Shown in pieces: positions 1,574 to 62,784 of a stretch of DNA of 64,000 nt. The notes beneath the pieces were generated by a model that saw only the letters and a program-made list of their open reading frames with translations, did no database searches and was not told the DNA's origin. This DNA comes from Octopus vulgaris (lineage: Eukaryota): NCBI GenBank assembly GCA_951406725.2, contig OX597825.1:64542001-64606000 (forward strand), in the 5' to 3' direction. Position 1 is the first letter of the stretch; the number at the start of each line of letters is the position of its first letter. Position numbers and translations under genes: made by a program.

Positions 1574-2582
1574 TATATTCTGATTGCTACAGAATAATAT
1601 TTTTAGGCAGAGGTTTCACATTTCTCCGCTCCTCTTTCAGTGGGACTGAACCAGGAACCACGTGGTTAGGAAGCGAACTTCTTACCACACAGCCACGTCT
1701 GTGTCTTTTCATTGTACCTGGTATTTGTTTTTTAGAGACTGCATCAAGTTCTACTCCGAGAGATGTATTTCTTTCTTAACGACATTCAGATTTATATCTT
1801 AAAAGACATTTGATACAAGAAATCTGTATCCCTTCGTCTTTTACATATAGCATGCAAGAATTCTTCCTCTATCATTTGAATGTATTTCTTCTTTTTATTT
1901 TTTTTTATAGTCTGTACAGCGAATGACAGTAACCTTGTGTACTATCTTTCCTTATTATTTGAAATTCTATCCAATATTTTTCTGTTGCACTTTGTGGAAA
2001 CAATAATGGATTTTAGTGAAATTAGGGGTTATTTCGCTAACTCCATTCTCTCAAGAATGATAATGATACAAAAGAATTAGTAACGATCCAGCGTTCTATT
2101 CTAAACCAGTACATTAGATCGAACGATATTTTTTATCGTAAAGTAAGGCTGCTTTTAAGAACATACAGTAGAATGCGTTGTGGTGATTGCTGAAAGGAAA
2201 AGTGAGCATAGTTTTACATTCTCTGGCCAGATCTTGGAAATACTTTAAGAGTAAAGTGGCATCCATTTCAACTAAAAGTCATTCAGCTGATAATATATTG
2301 GTAAAAGATATGTTTATTCCCAATTTGAGACAAATTAGGGTTCACAATCGAAGGATATGATGTGAGTAACATTATTATTGACAGGAATTTGGTTTTACTT
2401 CCATTTTTTTCCCAAAGTATTGTTGAAAATATCGATACCAAAATGGGATTACTTGTCCATTTCGATTATTAAGAAGCGGTGATATATTTTTCAATACACT
2501 GAAGAATTTTCAGTAAATGTTTTGTCATAGGTAATTTATTTAATCATTTTATCATTTTTTTTGTATTGTGGTGGCTATTGTC

Positions 2583-2807
2583 GTCTTCTTCTTCTTCTTC
2601 TTCTTCTTCTTCTTCTTCTTCTTCTTCTTCTTCTTCTTCTTCTTCTTCTTCTTCTTCTTCTTCTTCTTCTTCTTCTTCATCATCTTCTTCTTCTTCTCCT
2701 TCTTCTTCTTCTTTTTCGTTTTCTTCTTCTTCTTCTTCTTCTTTTTCTTCTTGTTCTTGTTCTTGTTCTTCTTCTTCTTCTTCTTCTTATTCTTATTCTT
2801 CTTCTTC
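2583..2807. repeat. (TTC)n microsatellite, partly degenerate
   Basis: Read directly; explains the poly-K/F/S/L ORFs. Confidence 0.98.
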
Positions 2808-3084
2808 CAATCAGGACTCATGCCATTACCCACAAGTAATAATCTCTAATTCGAGCCTACTCTAAGCTACTAAGAATGCGTGTGGCAAATTGAAGATCCA
2901 CCCACCACAGGCGATAGACTGGCGGTTGCACGGGCGCGAAAGCTACGTTGTTATCCTCATTCCGTAAACGGTGGCTTTTAACGGGTGAAGAGCTGAAACA
3001 TCCTGGGATACAGAAGATTCGCAATCTGGACTAGGGTCTGAAAGTTTACCACACCATAGTGGGTTACATCATGGTTCCTCTGCT

Positions 3085-3275
3085 TTGTGGCAGAAGTAGG
3101 AAGAAAGAGTTAGAGGAAGTTGTGGTGAAAGAGTACGGCGGAGTTCACCATCAACCCCCGCCGGAACCTCGTGGAGCTTAGGCGTTTTTGCTCAATATAC
3201 ACTGACAATGCCCGATCTGGGAATCGAAACCGTGTTCTTACGCTGCCCTAACCACTGGGCCATTCCGCCTCCACT
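3085..3275 (-). mobile_element. SINE family C, 5' part
   Basis: Reverse complement of GGAGGCG.AATGGCCCAGTGGTTAGGG...GGTTTCGATTCCCAGA; matches 36111-36499. Confidence 0.8.
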
Positions 3276-3323
3276 GGTGGCTGTTGTTTAGCCACAGCGG
3301 TATCCCTAGCTATTGTTCGCAAC

Positions 3324-3548
3324 AGTGAAGGCGCGTGGCTTAGTGGTTAGTGTGTCAGCATCATGATCGTAAGATTGTGGTTTCGATTCCTGGACCGGGC
3401 GACGCGTTGTTTTCTTGAGCAAAACACTTCACGTTGCTCCAGTCCACTCAGTTGGCAAAAATGAGTAACACCGCGATGGACTGACGTCCCGTCCAGCTGG
3501 GGAGGACATACGCCATAGGCTTTAAAAGGGCGCATTGATTTTATTTTT
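3324..3548 (+). mobile_element. SINE family D with 13-bp target-site duplication (TSD)
   Basis: TATTGTTCGCAAC at 3311-3323 and 3549-3561 flanks the element. Confidence 0.9.
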
Positions 3549-3599
3549 TATTGTTCGCAACTGAACCTGATCAATCTGTGGAAATGCGCCCCATTCTGT

Positions 3600-3805
3600 T
3601 GCAGGATTAAGAAGACTTGTCAAAAGACTTCATACTGTGACACCAGTCCCTTCTGGCAGGCAGTACAACAGTGTATTATGCAATAAAATGTGCAAATCTT
3701 TGTCGGGGATCAAGTCATATAAGAGCTTCACATTGCATCATCAATGACTCATTTCAATGATTCTTTCTAGCAATGGCTTTGCTTGTATACAAGAAAGCAG
3801 CCACT
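3600..3805 (+). mobile_element. Decayed 3' end of an RTE/Bov-B-type LINE
   Basis: Translates to CNKMCKSLSGIKS, like the C-terminal zinc finger CxxCxKxCxSxxGLxSH of RTE ORFs. The tail ends at a (TATG)n tract. Confidence 0.5.
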
Positions 3806-3847
3806 ATATATGTATGTATTATGTATGTACGTATGTATGTATGTATT

Positions 3848-4248
3848 TAAGGCGGATTAACTGTTGAGAGTCAACGGCCATCCAATAAATGTCTTAAGGA
3901 TGTATCATGCGCGGGGACATATAAATAATCGGACTGAATACCCGATCGCGCTGTTAAACCATTGGGAGTGAAGGACTCCTAGCCTTTGTTAGGGCATCCT
4001 TCTAGGAGATGGTAACTCAAGTAACTGGGATAACTCCGACATAAAACCTGCGGCTCAGTGGTTACCGATGATGTTGACTTGTTCTTCTTTTCGGATTATG
4101 GCTGCTGTTGCTTAGTGAGTGGGATTGATTCAGTACACAGCCTTTCCTCACTTTAAAAACAAAATCTTCTTGCACAGGCGTTGCACAATAACAACATTGA
4201 TTAAGATTCGTGCAATGGCCATATTCGATAACGAGGGGGCAGCCACCA
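3848..4248 (+). mobile_element. Short retroposon with RTE-like 5'UTR and tail between (TATG)n tracts
   Basis: GGGCATCCTTCTAGGAGATGGTAACTC resembles an RTE 5'UTR motif. The 3' end GAGGGGGCAGCCACC resembles the end at about 3800. Confidence 0.45.
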
Positions 4249-5766
4249 TGTATGTATGTATGTATGTATGTATGTATGTATGTATGTATGCATGCATGCA
4301 TGTATCTATCTATCTATGAAAGTGTGCTGCGGAACAGATTTAGTTGCCATTTCTCGTTGGACGAACAATAACATAGAGTCACTCACATTCGTTTGACATT
4401 ATTACTATAAAATGCTGGCGTAAATTTTGGTACCGAGGTAGCCATTCCCACTCTGTCTCTGCCTATTTGATCAAAGCGTTTATTTATTTATATTTCCACA
4501 GCTCAGAGAGTAATTTAGATTAACTTTCATCTGATATGCACAAACAAATATTTTAATGATTACTAAGCTTTTATGTCGTTTTTTGTTTTTATGTAAATTA
4601 GTTTTCACCTTTTATCTGTTCAGACTTGGTATTTTATCTTTTGAATATTCAGTAGAAATTGAGAGCCTTGAGGTAATATTTTATGCTATTTATTTTTTTT
4701 TTTTTTATTTCATTATATCTTTTTTTTTCAGGATATATGCTACTGATTTATTAGTTGTATTTCATTCCCTGTATCGTTGGAAGAGATTTTAGCTTTGTTT
4801 TAAGTAGGCTTAGATTTTGCGGACCCCACCTATTCTATAGAAGGGCTGTACCAGTAAGAAAAATGTGGTATGTATGTTTTCAAGCGATCTTGACTACTAT
4901 TACAGTTTAGTAGAATTTTCGACGGCCATTGTATTTGTAGTTGTTTATTGTGTTGTTGCTATTATTACTGCTGCTACCGCTGTTATTGTTGTTGTTGATG
5001 TTTTTGTTGATGTTGTTGTTCTTCTTCTTTATTCAAAGAACTTAAGGAATCGATCATAGTTACAATCAAAAATTGTATTCCTTTCGGACAAGGCCGTTAC
5101 TGGAAGACCGTATACACAGTATTCCTCTTTTAAGACAATAATGCATTATACGATTGTAATTTCTTGCTGGGCGATCTATCAAGCGCCCGAGCGAACTCCG
5201 TCTATGACCATCGTGTATGTAGTTCATTTATAATATACACTAAAACACATTATATAATGTGTTGTTTCATAATACAGTTGAGTTATACGGTGCTGTTATT
5301 TCTAGCATGCCATGCAACTGTGTATATTTTCTGTTCTTGCTTTCCTCATGCATTGGGAGTTTGTTTACAGCTAATGATTTTATCAATATTTATCAATATC
5401 ATTAATGTTTTGCAATAGGGATGCTGATAACCTTTTTCGAAATGGCAAAACGTGACGGGAGATTAATCCTGCGGAGTTGATTTCAAATATCCCAGATAAG
5501 ACAATAAAATGCATCCGATGGTGAAGCTCCAGCTAGGTCATCCTCGTGTTACAGAGAGTATGGAACTACTGCTTAGCTATCTCTACTCCCAAATTTACTC
5601 TGCCTGGTACAATAATTACATGTTAGGAATCTCTTTTACCAGAAGAGTGACACTACGGGTAAAGTATAGAAGACACGAGGCGAAGCTTAGTCTAGGCGTA
5701 TCATACTTGCTGGTGGGTAGACCTACCCTGATGTCGCTGAGCTAGATGCCTGACTAAGGATTGGAT

Positions 5767-5997
5767 CAATAGTTCTCAACCGGGGTCCATATAAGATTCT
5801 GTTGTTAAAAATTGTGCAACAAATCGGTTATGCCCCTACAACACACAAAATGTTCATTTTTGCTTATATCATTCCTAATATTTAATTATAAAAATACAAT
5901 AAGGCTTTCTTTTTAAACAACGAAATGCTAAGGGGTTCTACCCGTGTGAAATAAGAATCAAAGGAGATCATAAGAAAAAAATGATTGAGGCCCACAG
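5767..5997. mobile_element. Decayed hAT (Charlie-like) MITE
   Basis: Ends CAATAGTTCTCAACC and GATTGAGGCCCACAG are degenerate forms of CAGTGGTTCTCAACC and GGTTGAGAACCACTG. Confidence 0.55.
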
Positions 5998-6799
5998 TTT
6001 ATACAATCATTGTAACTTCAAATTAAGCTCGGGAGAGCTACAGGCTAGCATAGTAATCTCAGTAAACTGGTGGAAGGGAAAGTGAAACTTTTCCTGTATC
6101 CCTTTCCTCGTCTCATCTCTCCACATCTCTATGTATGTATGTATGTATGTATGTATGTATGTATGTATGTATGTATGTATGTATGTACGTATGTATGTAC
6201 GTATGTATGTATGTATGTATGTATGTATGTATGTATGTATGTACGCACGTACGTTTGTATGTATGTATGTGTGTATATATGTATGTGTGTATGTATGTGT
6301 ATAGCAATGTATGTATGTATTATGTATCCATTTATCTATCTATTTCTCTCTCTGACCAATTTAGTCTCCTGATGGCTGGAAATATGCAGTTAGCTTGGTA
6401 TGAAAAAAAAAATTACAAAACAAATAGTCGTGAAATACGAATGTTATATAAGCACGTTCGTTGTGATTGTACAGGTATGTTGTTCTTAATGGTACTTTTA
6501 TTTTTATTTATGGGATTCAAGGTGGAGTACACAAATTATTTATGGCTCTGAGATATGTACGGTAAATTACGGCCGGCTTTCATGTACGTGCTACTGCTGT
6601 CTTGCAGCGGTGAGTATAGAGATATATGTTGCGGATAATTTGTGAGAAAGAAACCCAAATATGTAGATTAGAAAGAAATATATTTTTGTTTGGGTTATGC
6701 TTCAGTATTTTATTTTTATTTTCTATTATCTTTTTCTTTTCCCGGCTTCGTTGGTTTTTCTGAATATATAAACTTGCTGGTAGTAAATTTGCTCATTAT

Positions 6800-6849
<50 letters not shown>

Positions 6850-6890
6850 AGAGTGCGAGTATGTAGGTATATGTATATATATTTATGTAT

Positions 6891-6940
<50 letters not shown>

Positions 6941-7542
6941 TGAGGTGAAGGATTATGTATATGTAAGTATACTCATGTACATACATATATGCATATATAC
7001 ATATATATGTATGTATGTGTTTACATGTATAGGTAGGTAGGTAGGTAGGTAGGTAGGTAGGTATGTGTGTGTGTGCGTGTGTGTATGTATGTTCATGCAA
7101 ACACGTAAATATCCATATATGTACCTTTGCGTATATATTCCTCATGCAAAACTTTCCACTACCATTATTTTGAATTATGTGATCAGTGAATTATTGATCC
7201 ACAAAGCACTATATCTAATAGTCATACTAACGTCTTTGCAGCTGTATGTGGACACTGCTTCACTGAGAACATACAAGACTAAAAGCTATCAGGAATCTTC
7301 ACCAAACTTCCTAAATACCATACTAAATGCCCTTTTCATATCTTCATTTAACTTTTGGTCGATTGATATCTCGAAAAAAACCTCCACTAGTTTTAGCTGA
7401 ATTTTTTTCTCACTATACCTATAAATTCAGCTGAGGAACTATTGTTATTGACTTTCTGTACAATATGTGGTTGCCTATATTTAACTATATACAGTCTATC
7501 TCAAGCCAATCATAGGAGATTTTCCAATACATTTATTTGGAC

Positions 7543-7591
<49 letters not shown>

Positions 7592-7595
<4 letters not shown>

Positions 7596-7737
7596 CCCCT
7601 GCTTTATTTTTGTGTTGCTTTCTGTCGATGATCGTTGGCTGGAAACGTAAACGACTTTCCCAGTTCCCGAGCGTTAAACTAATGCATCTATTTCCTGTTT
7701 ACACACCTATCTTCGTCTTTTGTTTTTCGTATATTCT

Positions 7738-7740
<3 letters not shown>
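7592..7740 (+). mobile_element. Short hammerhead-motif element (degenerate copy) within (TA)n
   Basis: CTTT-CTGTCGA-TGATCGTTGGCTG-GAAACGT-A-AACG at 7618-7653, then TTCCCGAGCGTT. Homologous to 15092-15260 and 60769-60980. Confidence 0.6.
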
Positions 7741-7818
<78 letters not shown>

Positions 7819-8039
7819 TGTATGTATGTATGTATGTATGTATGTATGTATGTATGTATGTATGCATGCATGCATGTATGTATGTATATATATTACTTGT
7901 TTCAGTCTGTTTAAAGAGAACTAAAATATGAATAATTACTGAGCAAACAACTTACAGTTTTGAAATTACATTCACTTAAAACGTGATTAAAATATTGTGT
8001 TTGACAAAAGTGAAGATAGAGACATTTGCTGTAACTGCT

Positions 8040-9110
8040 GGAGATTTTAATTGGTTTCATTTTTACATAGTGTTTGTTTATTAGTTTGTAGTACATGTGT
8101 TTGGGGTTGAAGGGTTTTCTGAAATAATTTGGCTACTGTTATAGGGACTTGTATGTTGGAGGGTGGATTAAACCAGAAGGTTATTCTTTTTCTATAGTTA
8201 TGTATGTTCATATTTGTGCGAGATTTGTTGTTCATACATTGCACTTTTTCCCTGTAACCTCTGTTGTTGACAGCTTCGCTATATGGGGTGTTATTTCTTT
8301 TTGTTTATTTTAATTTAAAGAAAAGAGGAAAAAGAAAAAGAAATGATCGTTACTAAGTTTTTAATAATGCTTTTGGGGTGGTTGTATTCTTTAGGTATAT
8401 ACTGAAATTTTTCGTTATCTTTCTTGTATGATTTATAGATACTGGATTCCAGGTCGATAGTAATGCCAAGAAAGTTGACTGTAATTTATTTGTGCTTCTA
8501 CAGTAATAGTGAAGCTCAATTTTTTTAAGAAGAGACATAGTGTCTTCCCAAATTTATCGAGGATTGTTTGTAGGTTTTAGTTCCTTAGCAGGAGTACACC
8601 ATCGTCCGTATAAAGACCATCTGTGACGGATGGATATTTATTGTGTAAAAAAACAACGATGTGGCTTACCTCTACCGAGTCTTTTGATCCCATACTTACA
8701 TAAAATGATTTATTAGTGATTTATTTAATTCTTAATTCAGAAAACATTGCTACGGTTTCTGAAAAGGAGCGGTTTCCTTGCAGATAAAATTGTTTTTATT
8801 TCGGTGTCGTTTCTTGTGGTTATGGTTTTAGCGAAGTTCAAAGCAGCTATGAGAATACTATTGAAGCATAATAATCTCTTATGTGAAACTGGTAGAAATG
8901 TTATTCATTTTTGTTTGGGATTTTGTTGAGCCAATCTATTACTTCGAAGTGTTACTCCATAGAGTTAATATCGATTTTAAATATATTTTGGTGAACATTT
9001 GTCTATGATTTTTTTCTATTATTGATAACTATGACCGTTTTCAAAGGATTTACAAGTCTGACGGATGGGTTGCACTTGAAATTTGGTTGTTGGCCTTTCA
9101 TAGATGTATA
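8040..9110 (-). pseudogene. Penelope-like element (Neptune-type) reverse transcriptase, decayed
   Basis: Minus-strand motifs occur in the expected order: [20 protein letters not shown] (about TLKDHKxNFxxNPxCRLINP), ALNFAK..ILSARKPLLF, FYVSMGSKDSVEV (about FDVTMGSxDGAEV), GLYTDDGVL (about GLYRDDGL), RKRITFWFNPP, KLINK..IKIS. Stops and frameshifts are present. Confidence 0.85.
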
Positions 9111-9183
9111 CAAACACTTATGTGTGTGTGGGCTTGCGTGAGTATATAGATACATATATATATATACATATATATATATATAG

Positions 9184-9244
<61 letters not shown>

Positions 9245-15023: not shown

Positions 15024-15091
<68 letters not shown>

Positions 15092-15098
<7 letters not shown>

Positions 15099-15260
15099 AA
15101 ACACGAAGACAAGTGCTGCAGACAATAAACAAATGTATTGGTATAACGCTCAGGAATTGAAAAATGCCTTTAACTTTTCGAGCCTGCGCTCTTCCACAGA
15201 AAGGAACACAGAAAGAAACAAGGAGAGAAAATAAAGCATGTGTAGTTGTCGGTAAATGAT
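15092..15260 (-). mobile_element. Short hammerhead-motif element beside (TA)n
   Basis: Carries the hammerhead fold at 15167-15204 and the family motif TTCCTGAGCGTT on the minus strand. Confidence 0.7.
15167..15204 (-). ncRNA. Minimal type-I hammerhead ribozyme-like motif (variant core)
   Basis: Minus strand CCUUU CUGUGGA A GAGC-GCAG-GCUC GAA AAGU U AAAGG: 5-bp stem I and 4-bp stem II. The core has A6U and the stem III palindrome is mutated (AAGU for ACGU). Confidence 0.6.
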
Positions 15261-15449
15261 AAATCATAAATCCGCATAAGAGGCATTCGATATATTCAAA
15301 CATAATTCTTCACGACTGTTAAATAAGTATATTGAGGCCCTAGGTGCATGCAACCACTGTTTCTTTCATACCTTCAGATTTTACCACACATCTAAATGCA
15401 ACCTAAATTACTATACAGTACATATACCGAATCTCCCTAGGTAACCTCG

Positions 15450-16435
15450 AACAACCTTATTTGACATTCCAATTTCTTAATTTTTAAAACTTTGTTAAAT
15501 TTCCCAGTAGTAGATTGGATTTGGAGGATCCTCGTCAGTTTCATTTTCCCCTTTTTTTTCGTGAAACCGGACATACCTAGGTTTTTGTGCAAATTTGTTT
15601 GCACATAACCTAATGCCCCTGTGAATGTAGGTACAAATGAGAATTCAAAGTCAGGGTACATAAGATGTACGGTCCGCATTAATTCGCCATAAATATTCTT
15701 TTTTTATGGATTGTTGACGGTACACTAACGTCTGTTGGGCAGCTGGCCTCTATAACAGTGCATTACTTTTATACCCTGTCCCAAAGAACAGTAAAGGTTC
15801 GTTATTTTTTAATTGGGGTATCTCGCCAGTATTCCTTGTTTTAAAGGCGTGCATACCCGCTGGTTCTGACATGTCTTCGATGTATACCTCATAGCAGTCC
15901 TTCCTGCGGGTAGAACTGTAAATATATTTCTTTACTGCCCTCAAGAGGCTAAACATAGAGGGGACAAACAAGGGCAGACAAAGGGATTAAGTCGATTACA
16001 TCGACCCAGTGCGAAACTGGTACTTTATTTATCGACCCCGAGAGGATGAAAGGCAAAGTCGACCTCGGCGGAATTTGAACACAGAACATAACGGCAGACG
16101 AAATACGGCTAGGCATTTCGCCCGGCGTGCTAACGATTCTGCCTAGCCTTTGCAGCTACGTTACATCAGGGACTGCTAGTACATCTTGGATATTTTGGTA
16201 CAGCTGATGATGGGTGGTCATGTATATCACGCCAGTATAGCAGGAACGTCATTTTCTGTCAAAATGTGTTGTTTTGGTGCTATCTTAATCCGTGTTGCTT
16301 ATTCTGTATTTAGTAGCTATCTCATGTTCCTCGATGGCGAAGGTATATTCATTAAGAAGGGAAGTATTAATATCTACCGCAGACCCCAGAGAAGCTACTC
16401 TTCCTATCAATGCCGTTGTTCTCCTAAGCTTCCGA
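15450..16435 (-). pseudogene. R4/NeSL-type non-LTR retrotransposon C-terminus (decayed zinc knuckle plus restriction-like endonuclease), split by a SINE B
   Basis: EYTFAIEEHEIATKY upstream. Downstream: WDRV.K.CTVIEASCPTD...KKNIYGELMRTVHLMYP...VPTFTGALG, matching the RLE signature PDxxxxD...IExxxPxD..K..KY..VPxxxGALG. Confidence 0.75.
15925..16142 (-). mobile_element. SINE family B (tail 1) inserted in the R4-like fragment
   Basis: Full core and tail GTCTGCCCTTGTTTGTCCCCTCTATGTTTAGCC on the minus strand. Confidence 0.9.
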
Positions 16436-42926: not shown

Positions 42927-43547
42927 ATAAGGCGGTGAGCTGGCAGAAACGTTAGCACGCCGGGCGAAATGCTTATCGGTATTTCGTCTGCCGTTACATT
43001 CTGAGTTCAAATTCCGCCGAAGTCGACTTTGCCTTTCATCCTTTCGGAGTCGATAAATTAAATACCAGTTACGCACTGGGGTTGATGTAATCGACTTAAT
43101 ACCTATGTCTGTCCTTGTTTGTCCCCTCTGTGTTTAGTCCCTTGTGGGTAATTAAGAAATAGGTATTTCGTCTGACGTTACGTTCTGAGTTCAAATTCCG
43201 CCAAGGTCGACTTTGCCTTTCATCCTTTTGGGGTCGATTAAATGAGTACCAGTTACGCACTGGGGTCGATATAATCGACTTAATCCGTCTGTCTGTCCTT
43301 GTGTGTCCCCTCTGTGTGTAGCCTCTTGTAGGCAGTAAAGAAATAAGAAACGTTAGCACGCCGGGCGAAATACTTAGCGGGATTTCGTCTGTCTTTACGT
43401 TGTGAGTTCAAATTCTGCCGAGGCGAACTTTGCCTTTCATCCTTTCGCCGTCGATAAATTAAGTACCATTTGCGTACTGGGATCGATCTAATTGACTGGT
43501 CCCCTCCCCCAAAATTTCGGGCCTTGTGCCTAGAGTAGAAAAGAATA
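42927..43547 (+). mobile_element. SINE B head-to-tail trimer
   Basis: Units restart at 43162 (GGTATTTCG) and 43346 (AGAAACGTTAG). The last unit ends in tail 2, GGGCCTTGTGCCTAGAGTAGAAAAGAATA. Confidence 0.92.
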
Positions 43548-49489: not shown

Positions 49490-50065
49490 CTTATTTCTTT
49501 ATTGCCCACAGTGCGGTAAACATATAGGGGACAAACGAGGACAGAAAAAAGGAATAAGTCAATTACATCGACCCCAGTACGTAACCGGTACTTATTTAAT
49601 CGACTCCGAAAGAATGAATCACAAAATCGATTTCGGTGGAATTTGAACAAAGAACGTAACGGCAGACGAAATACCTATTTATTTACTACCCACAAGGGGC
49701 TAAACACAGAGGGGACAAACAAGGACAGACAAACTGATTAAGTCGATTTTATCGACCCCAGTGCGTAACTGGTACTTAATTTATCGACCCCGAAAGGATG
49801 AAAGGCAAAGACGACCTCGGCGGGATTTGAACTCAGAACGTAACGGCAGACGAAATACCTATTTCTTTATTACCCACAAGGGGCTAAACACAGAGGGGAC
49901 AAACAAGGACAGACATAGGTATTAAGTCGATTACATCGACCCCAGTGCGTAACTGGTACTTAAAGGATGAAAGGCAAAGTCGACCTCGGCGGAATTTGAA
50001 CTCACAACGTAACGGCAGACGAAATACCGCTAAGCATTTCGCCCGGCGTGCTAACGATTCTGCAA
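49490..50065 (-). mobile_element. SINE B head-to-tail trimer (all tail 1)
   Basis: Junctions GAAATACC|TATTT at 49675 and 49859. Confidence 0.9.
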
Positions 50066-55622: not shown

Positions 55623-55626
<4 letters not shown>

Positions 55627-55820
55627 AGGCGCAATGGCCCAATGGTTAGGGCAGCAGACTCGCGGTCGTAGGATCACGGTTTCGATTCCCAGACCGGGCG
55701 TTGTGAGTTTTTATTGAGCGAAAATACTTAAAACACCTAAAACACGAGGCTGCAGCAGGGGGTGGTGGCGATCCCTGCTGTACTCTTTCGCCACAACTTT
55801 CTCTCATTCTTTCTTCTGTA
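55623..55820 (+). mobile_element. SINE family C, 5' half
   Basis: Matches 36111-36300. Confidence 0.88.
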
Positions 55821-60539: not shown

Positions 60540-60726
60540 CTCTTTTACTTGTTTCAATCATTTGACTGTGGCCAAGCTGAAGCACCGCCTTTATTCGAGC
60601 AAATCGACCCCAGGACTTATTCTTTCTAAGCCTGGTATTTATTCTATCGGTCTCATTTGCCTAACTGCTAAGTTACGGGGACGTAAACACACCAGCATCG
60701 ATTGTCAAGCGATGTTGGGGGGACAG

Positions 60727-60768
<42 letters not shown>

Positions 60769-61146
60769 TAAGCACCACCAGCTCAAATATTCTCTCCTCT
60801 GTCTTCCCTCCTTGGGATCTTTCCTTCTCCTTGTTTCCGACGAAGAGCTCCGCTCGAAACGTTAAACCCTCCTTCCCTTCTTTCCTGAGCGTCAATAATA
60901 CTTTAATTGTTCCACGTCCTGCGTTGCTGTGTTTTTTCTTTTTTTCCCCTTTTTTTCTGTGTTTTCTTGTTTGGATCAACTATATATATACATACATATA
61001 TACGACGGGCTTCTTTCGGTTTCCGCCTACCAAATGCACTCACAAGGCTTTGGTCAGCCCGAGGCTATAGTAGAAGATACTTGCCAAAGGTGCCACGTAG
61101 TGGGACTGAACCCGGAACCATGTGGTTCGTAAGCAAGCTACTTACC
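60540..61146 (-). mobile_element. SINE A split by a hammerhead-motif element at 60769-60980
   Basis: The tail half at 60540-60730 and the head half at 61000-61146 flank a 210-bp insert set in the TA tract. Confidence 0.9.
60833..60867 (+). ncRNA. Minimal type-I hammerhead ribozyme motif (U4C variant)
   Basis: GUUU CCGACGA A GAGC-UCC-GCUC GAA ACGU U AAAC: 4-bp stem I, 4-bp stem II, palindromic ACGU stem III and a GUU cleavage triplet. Confidence 0.7.
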
Positions 61147-62784
61147 ACACAGCAACTCCTACGCCTACATTAAGTACTACATTAAGTTGTCTTCAAAGCT
61201 TGGTTTTGTGAGAGCATAAACCATTCGAGTAAGCAGACAGGAGGTTCTTTTACAAAAAAATATAGCCAAATGATGGTTATTTATCAGGTATTTCTAGAAG
61301 GAATTTTCCAGGTTTTATTTGAATTTTATTCACTAAATTCATGAGTATTTCTTTCAGAATAATATTGACGACAACAGGAACCGATTGTGGTACATGCAAA
61401 GTGTTATATCATACGATGCGATCCCGATTTTTTCAAAGAGGCATATGATATGGAAGTCTAAGTTTAGGTGAGGTGACTAGTTAACTTGATGCTAGTGTCG
61501 TTTGGAAAATATCGATAGAAAATTTTCCCAATTTGTACAAATATGGTGGCGTGACAAAGAACAGTGTCAAATGACGCATGCTTGCAATGCCTTATATTTC
61601 ATATACACAAGGCCAGCAATTTCGAAGGAGGGCGTTAGTCGATTACATCGACCCCACTGCTCCGTTGATACATATTTAGTCGACCCCGAAAGGATGAAAT
61701 GGGAAGTCAACCTCGGTGGAATTTGAACTTAGAACATCAAGACGGACGAAATGTCGCTAAGCTTTTTGCCACGTCGCCGCTTTATATTTCATATATTACA
61801 ATAATAATAATAATCGTCGTTTTGGTGCCTTCGGTCTAGTAACGCTTTGTATACAGAAGACGATGTCTAAACTGGTAAGTTTGAAGGAGCCATGAAACTG
61901 TTTTAGGGACCATATAAACTTATATAAAAACAAATGCGGTTTTCAGTGCATGTGTCTGCTTAGCATCCTGGCTTTTAGATTCAACCTTCTGGGGAACTAA
62001 CGCAATGAATGTTACATATTTGCAATCAGAGTAACCGTGAACATCCCCGCCGTTGCTTCTGTCCTCCTTTGGTCCCTAGGTCTGCGGCAAAAATTCGTAC
62101 CCAATGACCTGATAAGCAAAATGCAGATTAAGAAGTATAACAATGGACATAGGGGTATAAAGATCAAACAAGCACGATATTTGCACAAGAATTATTTTTA
62201 ATCTACCCAGAAATTGGATGATAAACACTCAGAATAATCAACATTTATCGAAATCCTTTAACTTTTGCATAACCTCCAAGAGTAAAGAATTCTTGCTGTT
62301 TTCGGTAAGGTGCCTTTGAGTAGCAATATTATCGATCAGTTACTTCCTCTGCAGACGAAATCCACGGAACAATTTCCTCTCATTCAATCGGTTCTCTATA
62401 AAGATTTTTTTGTATCATGAATCATCTTTCCTTTCAAATTGTTTTTAAGTCAGTTTAGAATTCACGAATGTATGGATTATGTTTATATCGTAACTTCATT
62501 AGAAAACTTGTACATTTCGATATCAAGAGAGAAAGGCAACCAAGCAAGAACGGAAATGAGAAGAAACGATAGATAAAAAAAACAAATTCACAAGTCATAG
62601 CCTAAGGTAAGAGAAGATCCAGTAAAGTTTTGACTGGAAATGCTAGAAGTTTTAAACTAGGCAAATCACAAAAAAATCCGTGATACTAAGGCTTCTGAAG
62701 ATAGGATGATGTTTTGATCTTATACATTTTAACATGATTAAATTTATCTTTGCAAATAATTATAAATATTCCTTCAGGTAAACG

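Follow-up and report, generated by a model that had tools for sequence, protein, structure and literature searches.

The window, that is, the whole stretch of 64,000 nucleotides that was analysed, contains three small related non-coding elements, each located beside (TA)n, which almost certainly represent 5'-truncated pLTRs of two protein-coding families of Penelope-like elements (PLEs), here called A and B (Table 1). The presence of three such elements had been described in an earlier sequence-only reading, and it holds: a profile made from 91 aligned copies has exactly three matches in the window (60782-60982 on the plus strand, 15091-15236 on the minus strand and 7592-7733 on the plus strand), and the conserved block TTCCYGAGCGT has exactly three exact occurrences in it. 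The grouping into a single dispersed family does not hold, as the 60769 copy belongs to family A and the other two to family B, and a direct BLAST comparison of the former with the latter aligned only 34 bp (E 0.1). When the inserts were compared by BLASTN with the whole 2.8-Gb animal genome, the best 40 matches to the 60769 copy showed 94-100% identity. A search of Rfam with a limit of E 10 found no hammerhead family at 60790-60930, and among the matches listed for the whole window (150 of 328) only simple-repeat artefacts or weak matches were found. The 60769 copy is flanked by SINE-like repeats (60650-60725 and 60985-61165), and others are found at 42978-43345, 49492-50028 and 55625-55790, two of them as 184-bp tandem arrays; these repeats may resemble octopus tRNA-derived SINEs. 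On the minus strand, just upstream of the 15092 copy, positions 15300-15750 contain a decayed C-terminus, which we take to resemble that of a non-LTR retrotransposon with a restriction-like endonuclease.

Table 1. Features of the three hammerhead-bearing elements and of a neighbouring reverse transcriptase remnant, in window coordinates.
Feature	Position	Strand	Remarks
5'-truncated pLTR (3' end), PLE family A, young U4C subfamily	60769..60980	+	97% identity over 212 bp to the downstream pLTR of L031
Minimal type I hammerhead motif	60833..60867	+	read from sequence; cleavage site predicted
Hammerhead stem I, 60769 copy (GTTT/AAAC)	60833-36/60864-67	+	
Hammerhead core C3-A9, CCGACGA	60837-43	+	C at position 4 = 60838
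Extra A after core	60844	+	
Stem II GAGC-TCC-GCTC, then GAA	60845-55	+	
Palindromic ACGT; H17 = U	60859-62; 60863	+	predicted cut between 60863 and 60864
TTCCYGAGCGT, conserved in both families	60882..60892	+	can pair with stem II 3' strand or ACGCTCA
5'-truncated decayed pLTR, PLE family B	15091..15250, 5' limit approximate	-	82-86% identity to pLTRs of ORF-linked B copies
Core CUGUGGA (A6U), 15092 copy	15199-15193	-	stem III palindrome broken
5'-truncated decayed pLTR, PLE family B, inside (TA)n	7592..7742	+	75-80% identity to pLTRs of ORF-linked B copies
Core CUGUCGA (A6U), 7592 copy	7622-7628	+	stem II broken
Old PLE RT remnant, separate family	about 8055..9240	-	excluded as mobiliser

Positions within 60833..60867 follow what we take to be the standard hammerhead numbering. 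This scheme was combined with the description of minimal hammerheads given in the available part of PMC4209133. The minimal layout is complete in the 60769 copy and in the families, and is broken in stem II of the 7592 copy, as had been noted, where the extra base is U, and in the palindrome of the 15092 copy, which reads AAGT; the motif proposed as common to all three copies stands in general, with GAA-AAGT-T in place of GAA-ACGT-H as the exception. The cores CCGACGA, CUGUGGA and CUGUCGA, with A6U in two copies, are read exactly where they had been reported, and none of the three is CUGANGA. Stem I does differ between copies while its pairing is kept, the outer pair being G-C in family A and C-G in family B, but the fifth stem I pair and the GCAG loop, also listed earlier, are specific to the 15092 copy, the usual state of family B being a GTAG loop and a CTTT/AAAG stem I. 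TTCCYGAGCGT has two possible pairing partners, the 3' strand of stem II and the ACGCTCA at the beginning of the parent's 5' UTR, and its predicted pairing probability is 0.6-0.95 in the 60769 copy.

The three elements are assigned to pLTRs because the same sequence closes ORF-bearing elements on their 3' side. The 30 closest copies of 60769-60980 have a common 3' end, single and sharp, followed by (TA)n at 30/30 loci, and staggered 5' ends; several family A copies extend upstream for varying distances through a CA-rich region. In family A, the L031 element is arranged as pLTR-ORF-pLTR, and the motif is present before as well as after the ORF, each time with C4, the hammerhead being located in the pLTR and in sense to the ORF. 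In family B, the L204 element has the same arrangement, with U6 in both pLTRs, and its protein is 59-65% identical to that of family A (65% over 551 aa); a tblastn match to the family A protein was found in the flank of 14 of 30 B-end loci. Since the Pfam scores of a 716-aa stretch of L031 are weak (RVT_1 at E 0.0013 and GIY-YIG at E 0.0066, both below the Pfam cut-offs), the reverse transcriptase (RT) and endonuclease were assigned by motifs described in the accessible part of PMC8557442. Read directly, the ORF encodes an RT followed by a C-terminal GIY-YIG endonuclease, with a CX4CxxC linker in both families and a DKG motif in the family A protein, of which one residue is changed in the translated B copy. 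In a tree computed after removal of the core columns, A and B form separate groups (SH-aLRT 99), and its support inside the families is weak, with 56 of 88 inner branches open, so that neither the order nor the number of origins of the core changes was drawn from it. These traits point to EN+ Penelope-like elements of the Neptune/Nematis type for both families, with Neptune as a tentative label suggested by an RT motif and by the linker. The earlier suggestion of a Neptune-type RT as mobiliser thus found its counterpart in RT-GIY-YIG ORFs with a CX2-5CxxC linker, DKG, pLTRs and a (TA)n target.

The untranslated regions of the two families are of different length and composition. The 3' UTR of family A, measured from the ORF stop to the pLTR in L031, L032 and L033, exceeds 2 kb and consists of degenerate CA/TACA repeats, so that this family spreads a microsatellite as it copies itself, while that of family B measures about 1 kb and is CT- and CA-rich. 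At the L032 insertion, the flank of the 3' end is found a second time, in inverted orientation, at the 5' junction (near 5700-5840), and among 72 short copies a minus-strand match between the flanks was observed in 5.

The same evidence makes it very unlikely that the elements belong to a non-autonomous retrozyme or mini-PLE copying in trans, as had been proposed from the sequence alone. Most copies are indeed short, with an ORF within 1.5 kb at only 2 of 60 flank-selected loci, the short copies have a common preferred 5' start, and a solo pLTR may hold an internal promoter according to a passage of PMC2377424. Nevertheless, identity between the short copies and ORF-linked pLTRs reaches 97-99%, the 5' ends form a ladder reaching into the 3' UTR and the ORF, no tandem array is present at the three elements, and among 100 places listed of 32,763 only 2 same-strand pairs lie closer than 1 kb, one of them a mix of A and B. 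That the sequence turned out to be the 3' end of ORF-bearing elements is an outcome that the proposal had itself counted against the idea. A non-LTR retrozyme was likewise rejected, the unit not being ORF-free, as longer copies run into RT-EN ORFs. Some solo pLTRs may, even so, be re-copied in trans.

The other partner of that proposal, the RT remnant at 8040-9110, does not qualify as mobiliser, since it belongs to an old low-copy family without a link to the hammerhead copies. Its relatives amount to 44 matches, mostly at 64-81% identity, no tblastn match was found between the remnant and the family A protein, and a hammerhead in sense orientation was found at the 3' end of the remnant family in 0 of 20 loci; the 7592 copy itself lies antisense to the remnant. 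In this family (L181-L199) the RT motif is unlike that of A and B, and the relatives seem to end in a cysteine linker and a YIG-like motif.

The unusual property of these pLTRs is the ribozyme core. The search frame TTTC-N-G-N-N-GAAGAGC-N3-5-GCTCGAAACGT has 32,763 exact matches in the genome against 0 for the reversed control, distributed among CUGUNGA (A6U, 17,941), CCGANGA (U4C, 8,985), canonical CUGANGA (4,721) and other cores (1,116, by subtraction); because matching was exact, the total and the core counts are lower bounds and cover only motifs with the searched frame. Freeing positions 3-8 raised the number of matches by only 3,413, to 36,176, and C3, G5 and G8 occur together in 32,763 of these (90.6%). 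To avoid choosing copies by their motif, the first 30 copies of each family were also selected by the 3' flank pattern only. Of the 30 from family B, 23 extend into the core, 22 of them with U6; 22 of 30 from family A could be aligned, 13 with C4, 6 with U4 and 3 with another state, one of them truncated inside the core. In contigs assembled from four runs of four organisms, C is the majority at 60838 and T accounts for 17-27% of depth. From the flank-selected counts and this C majority it follows that the core variants are states of the master elements.

Family-fixed core variants had been suspected in the sequence-only reading, and the genome-wide tabulation agrees, with A6U in family B and U4C in the young subfamily of A; a plain CUGANGA consensus, which would have made the variants mere decay, is not the majority core. 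CpG or random decay of the cores was likewise discarded, as A6U, the majority core, does not arise by CpG mutation and U4C produces a new CpG. No description of A6U in a natural hammerhead, or of families A and B, was found in the literature searched, outside which lies the work of Lunse et al. (PMC5785218); a CUGUUGA sequence in PMC2704196 was considered as a natural core and rejected, the sequence there being a target. U4C (in a viroid) and A6C (in a phage) are already known.

In the flank-selected A6U copies, the motif shows less variation than the sequence around it, and its changes fall at positions where a hammerhead tolerates them. In family B, N7 is A in 9, U in 9, G in 3 and C in 1 of the 22 U6 copies, and H17 is A in 15, U in 7 and C in 1 of 23, the other motif columns having scattered changes only; both positions vary by subfamily among the flank-selected copies. 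G at position 17 was seen in 0 of 45 flank-selected copies and in 430 of the 32,763 genome-wide matches (1.3%). In the 22 U6 copies of family B, from which the one canonical B copy had been removed, a minor letter in at least 3 copies was found in 1 of 30 constrained columns and in 20 of 62 flank columns (Fisher p 0.0013); 36 of 82 flank columns vary when a longer, poorly aligned upstream flank is taken. The same test in family A gave 2 of 30 against 21 of 116 (p 0.16, not significant), and in both families the copies are related and the columns are not independent. Such a pattern would be expected of a working hammerhead, but promoter function or protein binding could yield the same conservation.

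A very unlikely alternative is that the motif is a neutral passenger whose variants hitch-hiked with the masters, its conservation reflecting the short time elapsed and a purine-rich stretch that slips less than the neighbouring pyrimidine tracts. This would agree with the non-significant test in family A, with flank variation that includes slippage-prone tracts, and with the appearance of U4C at several places on the weakly resolved tree, with 7 changes at position 4. It fits poorly with the column test in family B, and with the fact that A and B barely align outside the motif and yet have it in common, including a compensatory swap in stem I. The A-to-U and U-to-C core changes may have arisen by drift, the sense strand being pyrimidine-rich, which counts against a ribozyme under selection.

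A rather unlikely, though weightier, explanation holds that the pLTR origin is the same and that the variant hammerheads no longer cleave, being kept as a promoter element, a protein-binding site or a structure of the priming tract. In its favour, copies run through the cut site, the variant subfamilies outnumber the canonical one about six to one, the motif is located 60-100 nt downstream of the likely RNA start, and the consulted part of PMC8557442 reports that Naiads spread without canonical hammerheads and calls the hammerhead role in EN+ PLEs unclear. A small subfamily with G17 also seems to exist: about 28 of the 100 G17 matches listed (of 430) have CUGAUGA together with a 3-nt loop, and may be a set that spread with a normally uncleavable site. 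Against it, after the fixation of A6U only N7 and H17 have varied, and H17 is A, U or C and almost never G, as catalysis predicts; moreover, a circle formed by cutting and re-ligation would likewise yield copies in which the motif is intact. Cleavage by the variant cores at a useful rate is a little more probable than its absence.

The 5' ends of the copies bear on how often cleavage might occur. In 38 distinct loci read by eye among the matches listed (100 of 510), the 5' end lies at the predicted cut in 4, one base further in 4, at the T-run in 15 and at the next TA in 5; no pile-up at the cut was found in these loci, and the idea that cleavage sets the 5' ends was discarded. In 44 of 83 motif-bearing copies (L034-L063 and L094-L179; the family labels in the script are imperfect, which leaves the total unaffected), the 5' end is found 60-100 nt upstream of C3, in canonical and variant subfamilies alike. 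In about 25 of 41 family A copies the 5' end, read by eye, is no more than about 10 nt away from an ATG that follows an initiator-like TCATTC. Most short copies extend past the predicted cut site, so that they were probably copied from uncut templates, and run-off copying to the RNA 5' end from such templates would be the simplest reading of the 5' starts. Alternatively, the RT may pause within the downstream pLTR, or the template may be a re-ligated circle. An intron ending in the hammerhead is also possible, as family B1 reads like a splice acceptor, but it does not fit subfamilies in which N7 is other than A. Contigs of the four runs compared with a family A copy showed no ends, and no joints such as a circular RNA would leave, but assembled contigs cannot show absence of these.

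Folding predictions do not favour a monomer. The stem II probability was 0-0.33 in four of five monomer folds and 0.62 in one, stem II may face competition in these models from the conserved GAGCG downstream of it, and co-folding of two cores did not return an ACGU dimer. Downstream of the pLTR, L031 (after its upstream pLTR) and L204 (at 2615-2640) both have a TA-rich 8-mer and, after it, a block with ACGCTCA. This block is the part that the two 5' UTR starts share best (18 nt, 89%), and its ACGCTCA is reverse-complementary to the conserved TGAGCGT of the pLTR. A TGAGCGT/ACGCTCA helix could close around the priming tract; the UGAGCGU/ACGCUCA helix was predicted at 0.78-1.0 in B and at 0.01 in A, and only 2 pLTR-5' UTR junctions, too few to show covariation, were found.

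Taken as a whole, it is probable that the pLTR copies were inserted by the RT and the GIY-YIG endonuclease which the two families encode, and that the hammerhead is a slow ribozyme still under selection, its core having changed in the master elements. The endonuclease would nick (TA)n, and the nick would prime on the TA-rich tract downstream of the pLTR in the element RNA, so that copies enter (TA)n. Copying would then run back through the hammerhead and mostly stop 60-100 nt upstream, probably at the RNA 5' end. The ribozyme would act only as a dimer of two pLTRs joined by the ACGU palindrome and would cut rarely, leaving most templates whole, and the masters would have changed the core by A6U in family B and by U4C in family A. 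The three window copies, being single, would be inert. A more speculative extension, which we hold only tentatively, is that A6U and U4C are working natural cores, fixed and kept by selection in the most successful PLE lineages of this genome because they lower self-cleavage and so spare whole RNA as template, with a UGAGCGU/ACGCUCA helix enclosing the priming tract and controlling the ribozyme.

The window elements themselves are ordinary transposon debris with one unusual and well-supported feature, the majority variants at positions 4 and 6. For a ribozyme whose part in EN+ PLEs is, as mentioned above, stated to be unclear (PMC8557442, in the part seen), canonical, U4C and A6U sister subfamilies, with thousands of copies each in a near-identical frame, offer a natural comparison of whether cleavage is needed and how slow it is allowed to be. 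A search with the standard CUGANGA descriptors would overlook about 85% of the motifs counted here, and if A6U and U4C are working cores, PLE hammerheads are far more numerous than CUGANGA-based counts indicate.

Compared with known systems, the elements resemble the minimal hammerheads of PLEs in all structural features compared other than the CUGANGA core, as far as these are covered by the consulted parts of Cervera and de la Pena 2014 (PMC4209133): both have a short stem I, a U-rich 5' flank, an extra base between 9 and 10.1, a G10.1-C11.1 pair and a palindromic ACGU replacing helix III, and both are located in pLTRs, mostly as single copies from truncated PLEs. According to the same source, PLE minimal hammerheads have no activity as monomers and cleave weakly as dimers only, their consensus is CUGANGAH, and a core variant U3-A8 is reported. 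The dominant cores here, CUGUNGA and CCGANGA, are different, no CUGU or CCGA core being present in the supplement passages of that paper that were searched, and the copy number is at least 32,763, against about 2,000-9,000 per genome there. As in the EN+ PLEs described in the consulted part of Craig et al. 2021 (PMC8557442), there is an RT with a C-terminal GIY-YIG, a CX2-5CxxC linker and DKG, together with partial tandems, heavy 5' truncation, inverted companions and (TA)n targets; unlike them, family A has a 3' UTR of more than 2 kb that is largely CA/TACA microsatellite.

Natural hammerheads altered at the same two core positions are known from the excerpts of Perreault et al. 2011 (PMC3088659) that were available, where A6C of phage Bcep176 has a kobs below 0.1 per min with detectable activity, and U4C of a viroid is impaired in vitro and supports infectivity. 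Those are rare single cases in full-length ribozymes, while here the variants are the majority state among minimal motifs that number in the tens of thousands, with U at position 6 where the phage has C. With metazoan non-LTR retrozymes, as presented in the parts consulted of Cervera and de la Pena 2020 (PMC7229834) and Li et al. 2026 (10.64898/2026.07.22.740005), the elements have in common a type I hammerhead, a small size and kinship with PLE pLTRs; retrozymes, however, are non-coding and tandemly repeated, and every unit bears a hammerhead, whereas the elements described here are dispersed truncations of coding elements.
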